From Botryllus schlosseri (Eukaryota), in contig CM119371.1 in assembly GCA_051294905.1 (NCBI GenBank), positions 40,488,001 through 40,552,000 on the forward strand: a DNA stretch of 64,000 bases, given 5' to 3'. This document shows positions 40,113 to 40,853 of this stretch, one piece after another. The position numbers were made by a program, and so were the translations under genes. The notes under the pieces were generated by a model, which did not search any database, was not told the DNA's origin, and was given only the letters and a program-made list of their open reading frames with translations. Every line of letters begins with the position of its first letter. The stretch's first letter is position 1.

Positions 40113-40853
40113 ATGAATGCGCTTATAGTATCGATGTGTTATCGCGGAAAGCCGCACCATGTCGAAAATGAAGGAACGTTACAAGACATTCAGATTATGA
40201 CAGATATCTTAGTACAGAAATTCAAATTCAAGACTGAAGATATCAAAGTGTTGCGTGAAGAGCAAGCCACTCTTGGAAATTTTTCCAGAGAGCTTCAAAC
40301 GATGGCCGATAGTAGCGCCAAGATAAACTTCATATATTTCGTCGGTCACGGCTTTTCATGTCCAAATAACACAAAAGAAAATGATCCTGATGCTCGCGAT
40401 TCCGGATTTGTATTTTATGATAGGCATCTACTCGATGATGATATGTGTGAGCTATTAAAAAGCTTTCGTAAAGATACAAAAAACCTACTCATGTTTGCGC
40501 AGTGTTATAGTGGTAACTCTGCCGATTTGAAATTTCATTTACGAGAAGACGCTGCTTCGCAAGCACTCAAGCGCAAACGAGACGTAAAATCAAAAACTGT
40601 TCTCATAAGTGCAGTTAGTGACGATCAAATCAGTTGGTGTTTTGAAGACGGTAGTGCTTTTGCAAAGAATTTCAGAACCGTCATACGTGAACACGACGAA
40701 ATCAAATTCTTCGATCTTATGCGTAAATTGCGACAACTAGATAAGAGACAAAAGTGTTCGATATCATCAAACTTCAAATTGGATGAACACGATCATCTCA
40801 TTCGAAAAAGAAGTTTCAGTTGGATAAAATCTCAATGGAAGAAATCGAAATAA
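40113..40853 (+). CDS. Metacaspase (peptidase C14B), no prodomain
   Basis: Motifs ALIV..Y, D...M...L, FIYFVGHG (catalytic His), LDDDM, FAQCYSG..DL (catalytic Cys) and LISA..DDQ.S, with Q...SS at the end. Collinear with type I metacaspases. TATA-like TATATAAG upstream. Confidence 0.88.
   Translation: MNALIVSMCYRGKPHHVENEGTLQDIQIMTDILVQKFKFKTEDIKVLREEQATLGNFSRELQTMADSSAKINFIYFVGHGFSCPNNTKENDPDARDSGFVFYDRHLLDDDMCELLKSFRKDTKNLLMFAQCYSGNSADLKFHLREDAASQALKRKRDVKSKTVLISAVSDDQISWCFEDGSAFAKNFRTVIREHDEIKFFDLMRKLRQLDKRQKCSISSNFKLDEHDHLIRKRSFSWIKSQWKKSK

Follow-up and report, generated by a model that had tools for sequence, protein, structure and literature searches.

An open reading frame (ORF) at positions 40113-40853 (+) of a 64,000-nucleotide stretch of the Botryllus schlosseri genome (assembly GCA_051294905.1, contig CM119371.1, positions 40,488,001 to 40,552,000; here called the window) runs uninterrupted from ATG to TAA for 246 amino acids (aa). 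It is a metacaspase-like Peptidase_C14 gene carried by an integrated Maverick/Polinton-type element. We read it as a selectively maintained accessory gene for a compact peptidase of clan CD and metacaspase lineage, proposed to be active with an altered S1 pocket, and give this reading a probability of roughly 0.55. The protein, Maverick C14, descends from metacaspases yet fails their acidic-pocket hallmark. Because that defining acidic S1 pocket is missing, we call it a divergent metacaspase-lineage protease and not a canonical metacaspase.

Metacaspase lineage and substrate pocket

The gene had been taken for a metacaspase from its sequence alone, and the Pfam profile of Peptidase_C14 (PF00656) bore this out over residues 4-209 (50.3 bits, cut-off 21.4; E = 3.2e-13). 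A phmmer search of 1.84 billion representative proteins returned 755 homologues at E <= 1e-3, with 23 at E <= 1e-10 and 3 at E <= 1e-30. Close relatives appear to be very rare in public protein collections: a word-indexed protein search found four, all singletons, at 87, 62, 51, and 49% identity. The protein has the caspase/haemoglobinase fold, with the His-Cys dyad after strands beta3 and beta4, and its AlphaFold2 model (114 homologues) reached a mean pLDDT of 93.2 and a pTM of 0.91. The Pfam score, the 755 homologues, and the confidence of the model put the C14 assignment far beyond chance. NCBIfam gave a match to caspase_w_EACC1 of 24.8 bits, below the threshold of 140, and the ESM Atlas returned generic bacterial or phage caspase-domain clusters only.

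Searches of the Protein Data Bank (PDB), a family profile, structural comparison, a tree, and alignment with host proteins agreed in placing the protein with metacaspases and not with caspases or paracaspases. In phmmer with the single sequence, the significant PDB matches were AtMC4 (2.3e-7), AtMC9 (3.5e-7), GSU0716 (1.2e-6), and Yca1 (2e-3), with no caspase or paracaspase among them. A profile of eight full-length close relatives (A3) retrieved Yca1 (9.2e-21), AtMC4 (2e-18), and TbMCA2 (1.4e-11 and 3e-11) from the PDB at E <= 10; the remaining matches were metacaspases or GSU0716 and two designed proteins at chance level, and neither a caspase nor MALT1 was retrieved. On the host's own C14 ORFs the same profile scored at most 8.9 bits (13 of 14 ORFs with reported scores). 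Foldseek, run with the AlphaFold2 model, listed only metacaspases or GSU0716 through rank 26, among the rows listed; legumain entered at rank 30 and MALT1 at 32. In the set of predicted viral structures, giant-virus (meta)caspase-domain proteins matched best, led by Fadolivirus (E = 4e-16, TMq 0.84) and followed by Clandestinovirus and Heterosigma akashiwo virus 01.

We also built a quick IQ-TREE tree of 74 rows: the eight close relatives, the first 60 of 106 other aligned homologues, five host caspases, and the host paracaspase. These six host proteins split from the ingroup with an SH-aLRT support of 93. The window protein fell in a seven-sequence clade (99) with P0001, P0002, P0003, P0004, P0007, and a copy from a sister Maverick lineage (see below), which P0008 joined weakly (80). 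The host reference proteins include L013, an ordinary caspase (E = 2e-64 to caspase-7/-3), and L024, a paracaspase of MALT1 type (E = 1e-46 to MALT1).

Three hallmarks of caspases (C14A), Q-A-C-x-G, S-H-G, and the L5 Arg, are replaced in the query by A-Q-C-Y-S-G, V-G-H-G, and Cys176, whereas the host caspases carry the canonical residues in those same alignment columns. The query is also unlike a paracaspase: it is a single 246-aa domain that A3 does not link to MALT1, and the host paracaspase differs from it in the D-x-C-R and L5-Glu columns. The architecture is p20 followed by p10, with a linker of ~25 residues and no prodomain. This order and linker length exclude types II and III; by sequence, the layout resembles the prodomain-less type I or bacterial forms.

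Active metacaspases have a strict P1 preference for basic Arg/Lys, according to the passages on specificity in PMC4357240 and PMC10235996; the metacaspase four-Asp site and P1 burial are treated in a part of the latter. For TbMCA2, the active-site passages of McLuskey and Mottram (2015, PMC4357240) list Cys92, Asp95, Ser156, and Asp211 as S1 residues and a Ca2+ site of four aspartates that include Asp173, Asp189, and Asp190. In AtMC4, the S1 pocket consists of Asp137 and Ser84 (p20) plus Asp352 and Ser350 (p10), and alanine at S84, D137, or D352, but not at Ser350, abolishes Ca2+-dependent self-cleavage, as given in the pocket section of Zhu et al. (2020, PMC7206013). Pairwise and profile alignments onto solved metacaspases gave the following residue map, at the level of sequence.

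TbMCA2 C92: window T22
TbMCA2 D95: window D25
TbMCA2 S156 and AtMC4 S84: window V77
TbMCA2 D211 and AtMC4 D137: window A129
AtMC4 S350: window S174
AtMC4 D352: window C176
TbMCA2 Ca2+ site D173, D189, D190, and D220 (the last of which we take to be the fourth aspartate): window D96, D108, D109, and D138

The corresponding features of the window are given below, where A1 is an alignment of 114 rows (the eight close relatives and 106 others).

40113-40853 (+): C14 gene, p20 then p10, no prodomain, short linker
40347-40349 (+): codon of the catalytic His79, in V77-G-H-G80, with V77 in place of the Ser of S-G-H-G; H79 in 114/114 rows of A1
40398-40526 (+): codons of D96, D108, D109, and D138, equivalent by alignment mapping to the TbMCA2 Ca2+/Sm3+ site
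40497-40505 (+): A129-Q130-C131, with the catalytic Cys131 and Ala at the S1-Asp position; C131 in 114/114 rows of A1
40632-40640 (+): S174-W175-C176 in the p10 L5 loop; Cys stands where AtMC4 has D352, caspases have Arg, and the paracaspase has Glu

All motifs quoted in the sequence-only reading occur in the ORF translation: VGHG (V77-G80), QCYSG (Q130-G134), DARD (D93-D96), LDDD (L107-D110), ADL (A137-D139), A-Q-C-Y (A129-Y132), and SWC (S174-C176). Its claim that the acidic S1 residues are replaced also stood, and the A1 residue counts make the replacement a feature of the clade and not a defect of one copy. Where AtMC4 has D137, D352, and S84, the window protein has A129, C176, and V77. 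Position 129 is A6 S1 E1 in the eight close relatives versus D104 E1 N1 in the 106 others, and position 77 is V6 I1 A1 versus S93 T6 A6 Y1. Position 176 is C4 V2 S1 T1 in the close relatives; the six commonest residue types in the others are D59 E17 G8 S7 A7 T3. The neighboring position 175 is W6 T1 F1 in the close relatives and mixed in the others, with A30 commonest.

The catalytic and Ca2+-site columns are conserved. H79, C131, and D108 are present in 8/8 close relatives and 106/106 others, D96 in 7/8 and 105/106, D109 in 8/8 and 101/106, and D138 in 8/8 and 71/106, so that at the sequence level all four aspartates of the Ca2+ site are in place in the window protein. Of the DARD aspartates, previously counted toward this site, D96 is the ligand equivalent; D93 is private to the window copy, as is N220, with E93 in 9/9 other copies examined. 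Gly78, Gly80, Ser133, and Gly134 are unchanged in 8/8 close relatives. D25 is found in 6/7 close relatives covering the column and in 103/106 others.

In an L-INS-i alignment with host proteins, the five aligned host caspases all have Arg in column 176, where the host paracaspase has Glu; column 129 is Gln in the caspases and Asp in the paracaspase. The caspase Gln/Arg and the MALT1 Glu bind P1. By alignment, columns 129 and 176 are those that carry P1 charge determinants superfamily-wide, and both are neutral in the Maverick clade. Q130 was considered as the counterpart of the caspase Gln and rejected: it sits at Cys-1, not Cys-2.

Compared with type I metacaspases of solved structure (Saccharomyces cerevisiae Yca1, 4f6o; Candida glabrata Mca1, 7qp0/7qp1; Trypanosoma brucei MCA2, 4afr), Maverick C14 lacks the N-terminal prodomain, and its p20-p10 linker is far shorter, Yca1 showing an alignment insert of ~50 residues. 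It further differs in that Val replaces Ser at His-2, Ala replaces Asp at Cys-2, and Cys replaces the Asp of the p10 'SAD', and it is encoded by an animal Maverick, whereas these type I enzymes are encoded by fungal or protist genomes. Unlike the Arabidopsis type II enzymes AtMC4 (6w8s) and AtMC9 (8a53), it has no long autoinhibitory linker bearing Lys225/Arg183, and three of the four S1 residues of AtMC4 (S84, D137, D352) are replaced. The Geobacter protein GSU0716 (3bij), one of the bacterial prodomain-less 'orthocaspases', retains D-S-C-H-S-G and S-G-H-G; no close bacterial relative of Maverick C14 was found in the homologue searches. From animal caspases and MALT1 (the host's L013 and L024) it is set apart by lacking their Q-A-C-x-G, S-H-G, and L5 Arg and by the absence of death, CARD, and Ig domains.

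Giant-virus metacaspase/caspase-domain proteins (Fadolivirus, Clandestinovirus, Heterosigma akashiwo virus 01, Pyramimonas orientalis virus, and others; E of 4e-16 to 1e-15, TMq 0.78-0.84) share with Maverick C14 a virus-borne gene. They are only 14-18% identical to it, however, and belong to Nucleocytoviricota of protists and algae, whereas the carrier here is a 16.6-kb Maverick integrated in an animal. The part of PMC10583209 that deals with giant viruses states that they encode metacaspases with an unclear role. It also describes the executioner caspase of Spodoptera frugiperda ascovirus 1a, another case of an animal virus encoding its own C14 protease; that protein differs in being a true caspase from an unrelated virus group, with a weak structural match (rank 25 in BFVD, E = 6e-5, TMq 0.53). 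The A3 scan of viral contigs (IMG/VR) produced 85 pattern matches, none of them a relative, and the JGI metagenome contigs scanned gave 14 loci, all at only 25-33% identity.

The Maverick carrier, its copies, and selection

The ORFs around the C14 gene identify the carrier as a Maverick/Polinton: a chromodomain integrase, an A32-type ATPase, putative capsid and protease ORFs whose order is conserved between lineages, and a lead to a polymerase (all listed below). The C14 gene is cargo in its right-hand accessory region and not a core gene of the host. The sequence-only reading had a virus bring the gene in horizontally. The gene is indeed virus-borne, but its carrier is an integrated, multicopy Maverick/Polinton and not a giant virus, and the gene is still cargo of that element; horizontal acquisition holds as the route into the animal genome and does not name the donor of the gene to Mavericks. 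That the genome is an animal's, as had been supposed, is shown by 54 exon-level matches to Wnt (PF00110), all above cut-off, on several contigs including that of the window, along with the genome's own caspase-3/7-like and MALT1-like genes. Wnt is metazoan specific. Two GH6 matches in long open frames (31.8 and 28.1 bits, cut-off 27) fit the tunicate cellulose-synthase/GH6 gene, and by gene content a tunicate host is probable.

A tblastn search of the genome (495 Mb, 219 contigs) with the C14 protein gave 16 matches: 13 full-length ones at 95-100% identity (12 open, 1 with a TGA), 2 open ones at 66%, and 1 partial. The gene thus occurs in at least 13 Maverick copies spread over 10 contigs, the pattern of a dispersed element of 15-20 kb. 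Compared with the window copy, nine near-identical ones show 2-3 aa changes, none at pocket or catalytic positions. Sequencing runs filed under five organism labels also contain near-identical C14 copies (0.58-0.76 of sampled words). Eight database relatives are damaged or short (P0005, P0006, P0009, P0010, P0014, P0016, P0019, and P0021).

The two 66% copies, L011 and L012, represent a sister Maverick lineage with the same gene order and with C14 at the same position. Their order is an intact capsid ORF (419/425 aa), the protease, a conserved ORF of ~110 aa, C14 (241 aa), and an ORF with three BIR domains (3xBIR) that is like inhibitor of apoptosis (IAP) proteins. This last ORF directly follows C14 in both sister copies (Pfam BIR, E = 1.5e-39 and 1.5e-42); the window lineage has a ubiquitin-conjugating enzyme (E2) instead. 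Between the window and sister lineages, Nei-Gojobori counts for C14 gave a saturated synonymous difference (pS) of 0.775-0.797 and a nonsynonymous difference (pN) of 0.214-0.217. Since pN is ~0.21 against saturated pS, the C14 gene is under strong purifying selection between Maverick lineages.

The element and its other features are as follows.

26708-43316 (strand not assigned): Maverick/Polinton-type integrated element, ~16.6 kb, with approximate ends from alignments of other genomic copies
29547-33347 (+): putative polymerase region, three ORFs, with an ESM Atlas lead for 31392-33347
33376-33996 (+): A32-like packaging ATPase; Pfam Pox_A32, E = 2.4e-9, 37.5 bits (cut-off 22.8)
34886-35890 (+): retroviral-type integrase with chromodomain; Pfam rve E = 5e-13 and Chromo E = 3.9e-11, both above cut-off
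38019-39297 (+): putative major capsid protein, in two frames that overlap (38019-38759 and 38740-39297); weak Pfam match to DJR-like_dom (E = 0.004), under the cut-off, with an intact counterpart in L011 (3551-4810, 419 aa, same place)
39294-39755 (+): putative small cysteine protease, perhaps an adenain/Ulp1-like maturation protease; weak PDB match to African swine fever virus (ASFV) S273R cysteine protease, E = 0.016; positional counterpart conserved in L011 (4807-5265)
39728-40045 (+): 105-aa ORF, no Pfam or NCBIfam match; counterpart of 111 aa at the same position in L011 (5246-5581)
40044-40079 (+): AATAAA (40044-40049) followed by TATATATAA (40071-40079), the latter 33 nucleotides ahead of the C14 ATG
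40939-41280 (+): 113-aa ORF of the accessory region, no Pfam or NCBIfam match
41545-42024 (-): E2; Pfam UQ_con, E = 5.5e-45; within the stretch common to other copies
42135-42455 (-): 106-aa ORF of the accessory region, no Pfam or NCBIfam match
L011 6587-7780 (+) and L012 2228-3442 (-): 3xBIR IAP-like protein of 397/404 aa, by Pfam BIR

The AATAAA may serve the upstream ORF as its poly(A) signal, and TATATATAA may be the TATA box of the C14 gene. The same AATAAA-TATATATAA-ATG layout recurs in the sister lineage (L011 5580-5595, ATG at 5627) despite saturated synonymous sites, which suggests that the C14 gene has its own promoter.

At the right end, 10 other copies align to window positions 39000-43316 at 92-93% and all stop there, and 3 more cover part of this stretch. 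The left end comes from a single scored copy (contig C9), which aligns from position 26708. A comparison of 26301-27500 with 42301-43500 in the window copy revealed no terminal inverted repeats; the ends of this copy are therefore uncertain, and it may be truncated. Long inverted repeats at 23276-26385 and 59164-62242 were considered as the Maverick's terminal repeats and ruled out by their orientation and by their pairing at other loci. The arms at 22000-26386 and 59164-62242, one on each side of the region, come from a different, abundant element with inverted arms of ~3.3-4.3 kb and dozens of paired copies elsewhere (97-99% identical), and their orientation assigns them to two separate insertions. 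Just beyond the right end of the Maverick, at 44846-45416, lies a nested hairpin resembling a miniature inverted-repeat transposable element (150-nucleotide arms 98% complementary and 89-nucleotide arms 92%).

In the polymerase region, the nearest ESM Atlas clusters of ORF 31392-33347 were of PF03175 DNA_pol_B_2 (score 0.97, 209 shared features), a lead only, and the ORFs had no match in Pfam or in phmmer against the PDB. We take the translation of 29547-33347 to carry polymerase-type motifs, and we infer that these ORFs are a split protein-primed polymerase. With its capsid gene in two overlapping frames and its putative polymerase in three ORFs, the window copy of the element is probably defective; its C14 gene is intact. 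A few second-mate reads of a single-cell RNA run, at 95-99% likeness, fall at 41494-41707, the 3' end of the E2 gene, in the sense of the minus-strand mRNA. They carry variants, which makes another copy their source.

The open-licence literature (CC-licensed PMC and bioRxiv) yielded nothing linking Mavericks, Polintons, or adintoviruses to caspases or metacaspases and, by titles and abstract starts, no report of a tunicate metacaspase. Accessory regions of vertebrate Mavericks are described in PMC8097293, which does not contain the words 'caspase', 'peptidase', 'ubiquitin', or 'apoptosis', and PMC7836458 reports no bivalve metacaspase.

Activity, specificity, and alternative explanations

In our preferred reading, Maverick C14 would be an active, probably Ca2+-responsive, monomeric endopeptidase with neither prodomain nor autoinhibitory linker. 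Its S1 pocket would be lined by Thr22, Val77, Ala129, Trp175, and Cys176 plus one remaining Asp, D25, and would favor neither the Arg/Lys that canonical metacaspases select nor the Asp that caspases select. The enzyme would be made during Maverick replication and cut host or viral proteins, and it may belong to an accessory module for manipulating the cell-death and ubiquitin pathways, with the E2 as its partner in the window lineage and the 3xBIR IAP-like protein in the sister lineage. A new P1 preference, raised already in the sequence-only reading, is plausible from the residues that replace the acidic pocket.

A bolder version of this reading, which we hold only tentatively and think may well be wrong, is that these proteins are the first C14 clade with an uncharged S1 pocket: an active, Ca2+-gated enzyme that would cut after an uncharged residue and be deployed with an IAP-like or E2 partner. 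Such cleavage is proposed because the pocket lacks both the Gln/Arg pair of caspases and the Asp/Asp(Glu) pair of metacaspases and paracaspases. To our knowledge, no caspase, metacaspase, or paracaspase has a P1 specificity for an uncharged residue. A natural clade that keeps the catalytic and Ca2+ machinery and yet has a neutral pocket offers a test of how P1 is encoded in the caspase superfamily, and it raises the question of a third specificity class. If the reading is true, an animal-infecting Maverick would use the enzyme to rewire host cell-death or innate-immune signaling. The cell-death-type module of C14 with E2 or a 3xBIR IAP extends the accessory repertoire of animal Mavericks and hints that they manipulate host apoptosis or ubiquitin pathways, like large DNA viruses. 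The Maverick location also explains how a 'metacaspase' can be annotated in an animal genome without an animal origin of the gene.

Several points temper this reading. No RNA run was listed as containing the gene; in a single-cell RNA run (~3% sampled), 22 reads were placed and none of them on 40113-40853, and a second RNA run, with 0 reads placed anywhere, does not bear on expression. Of two sets of contigs guessed to be RNA, one covered the element evenly, as DNA would, and the other had been picked by way of the C14 gene itself. The window copy may also be silent, given its split capsid and putative polymerase genes. Canonical metacaspases made up most of the alignment behind the AlphaFold2 model and bias it toward their fold, and the grounds for a host-manipulating role are only the gene neighborhood and the analogy with giant-virus metacaspases. 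The retained D25 bears on specificity: it corresponds to TbMCA2 D95, one of the S1 residues named for that enzyme, and basic P1 recognition by a single Asp is possible by analogy with gingipain R. In RgpB, one Asp on the matching helix, Asp163, binds P1 Arg, and Trp284 on the matching loop forms a lid (structural comparison in PMC4357240). Maverick C14 might then be an ordinary Arg/Lys metacaspase whose pocket differs in lining and not in specificity, D25 supplying the charge and Trp175 forming the L5 lid. The conservation of D25 inside and outside the clade and the presence of W175 in 6/8 close relatives fit this explanation, but the host caspases, whose P1 residue is Asp, conserve the D25 column too, and the residue may be structural rather than a determinant of specificity. 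Moreover, in AtMC4 the loss of either of the other two acidic residues abolishes self-cleavage (mutant data in PMC7206013). We regard ordinary basic specificity as unlikely, if the most serious competitor.

The same AtMC4 mutants bear on activity itself. The three positions replaced in Maverick C14 are ones at which alanine leaves AtMC4 inactive in self-processing (PMC7206013, mutant data), and by this analogy Maverick C14 could be inactive too. It might have been kept as a catalytically silent pseudo-protease for binding, a decoy or scaffold for host caspase or IAP regulators, with the dyad serving structure or ligand binding. Purifying selection fits any function, including this one, and an IAP-like 3xBIR gene does adjoin C14 in the sister lineage. 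His79, Cys131, and the glycines and serine around them are nevertheless invariant in the close relatives, and the Ca2+-site aspartates are retained in 7-8 of 8, all of them residues that a pure binder could do without; we judge a pseudo-protease a little less likely again than ordinary specificity. Degeneration is harder still to reconcile with the data. A decaying, functionless passenger would agree with the split capsid and polymerase of the window copy and with the short or damaged database relatives, but 12 of the 13 near-identical full-length copies and both 66% copies are open, pN is 0.21 against a saturated pS of 0.78, and the substituted positions are themselves conserved in the clade, so we disfavor it as improbable. 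Nor is it credible, except at very long odds, that a host gene or non-animal contamination was misread as viral cargo: the 16 matches are all on large chromosomal contigs, in a genome that also has Wnt, caspase-3/7-like, and MALT1-like genes, the full-length copies have flanking Maverick genes, and the 14 other host C14 loci lack a metacaspase-type motif.

Host C14 loci and neighboring sequences

None of the 14 further host C14 loci that we read carries the metacaspase-type motif. Three host loci, L021, L022, and L023 (C7:7.52 Mb, C16:7.51 Mb, and C3:22.97 Mb), are single-exon ORFs of 552-587 aa, each apparently with two tandem caspase-like domains in which D-[YC]-C-R-G replaces Q-A-C-x-G.

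Elsewhere in the window, an intronless 492-aa ORF at 45744-47222 (-) encodes NACHT and NOD2 winged-helix domains. Its DNA has at least 25 relatives genome-wide at 78-83% identity, which indicates a large family resembling NOD-like receptors (NLRs). An array of ~325-bp repeats at 17540-19688 is rich in CCCTAA/TTAGGG-like telomere motifs and has a 100-nucleotide inverted repeat at its borders; the GC skew is -0.67 in 18001-20000. Finally, an element at 1383-5262 lies between perfect 107-nucleotide inverted repeats (1383-1489 and 5156-5262) and contains a 529-aa ORF that matches RVT_1 (E = 2.6e-9).

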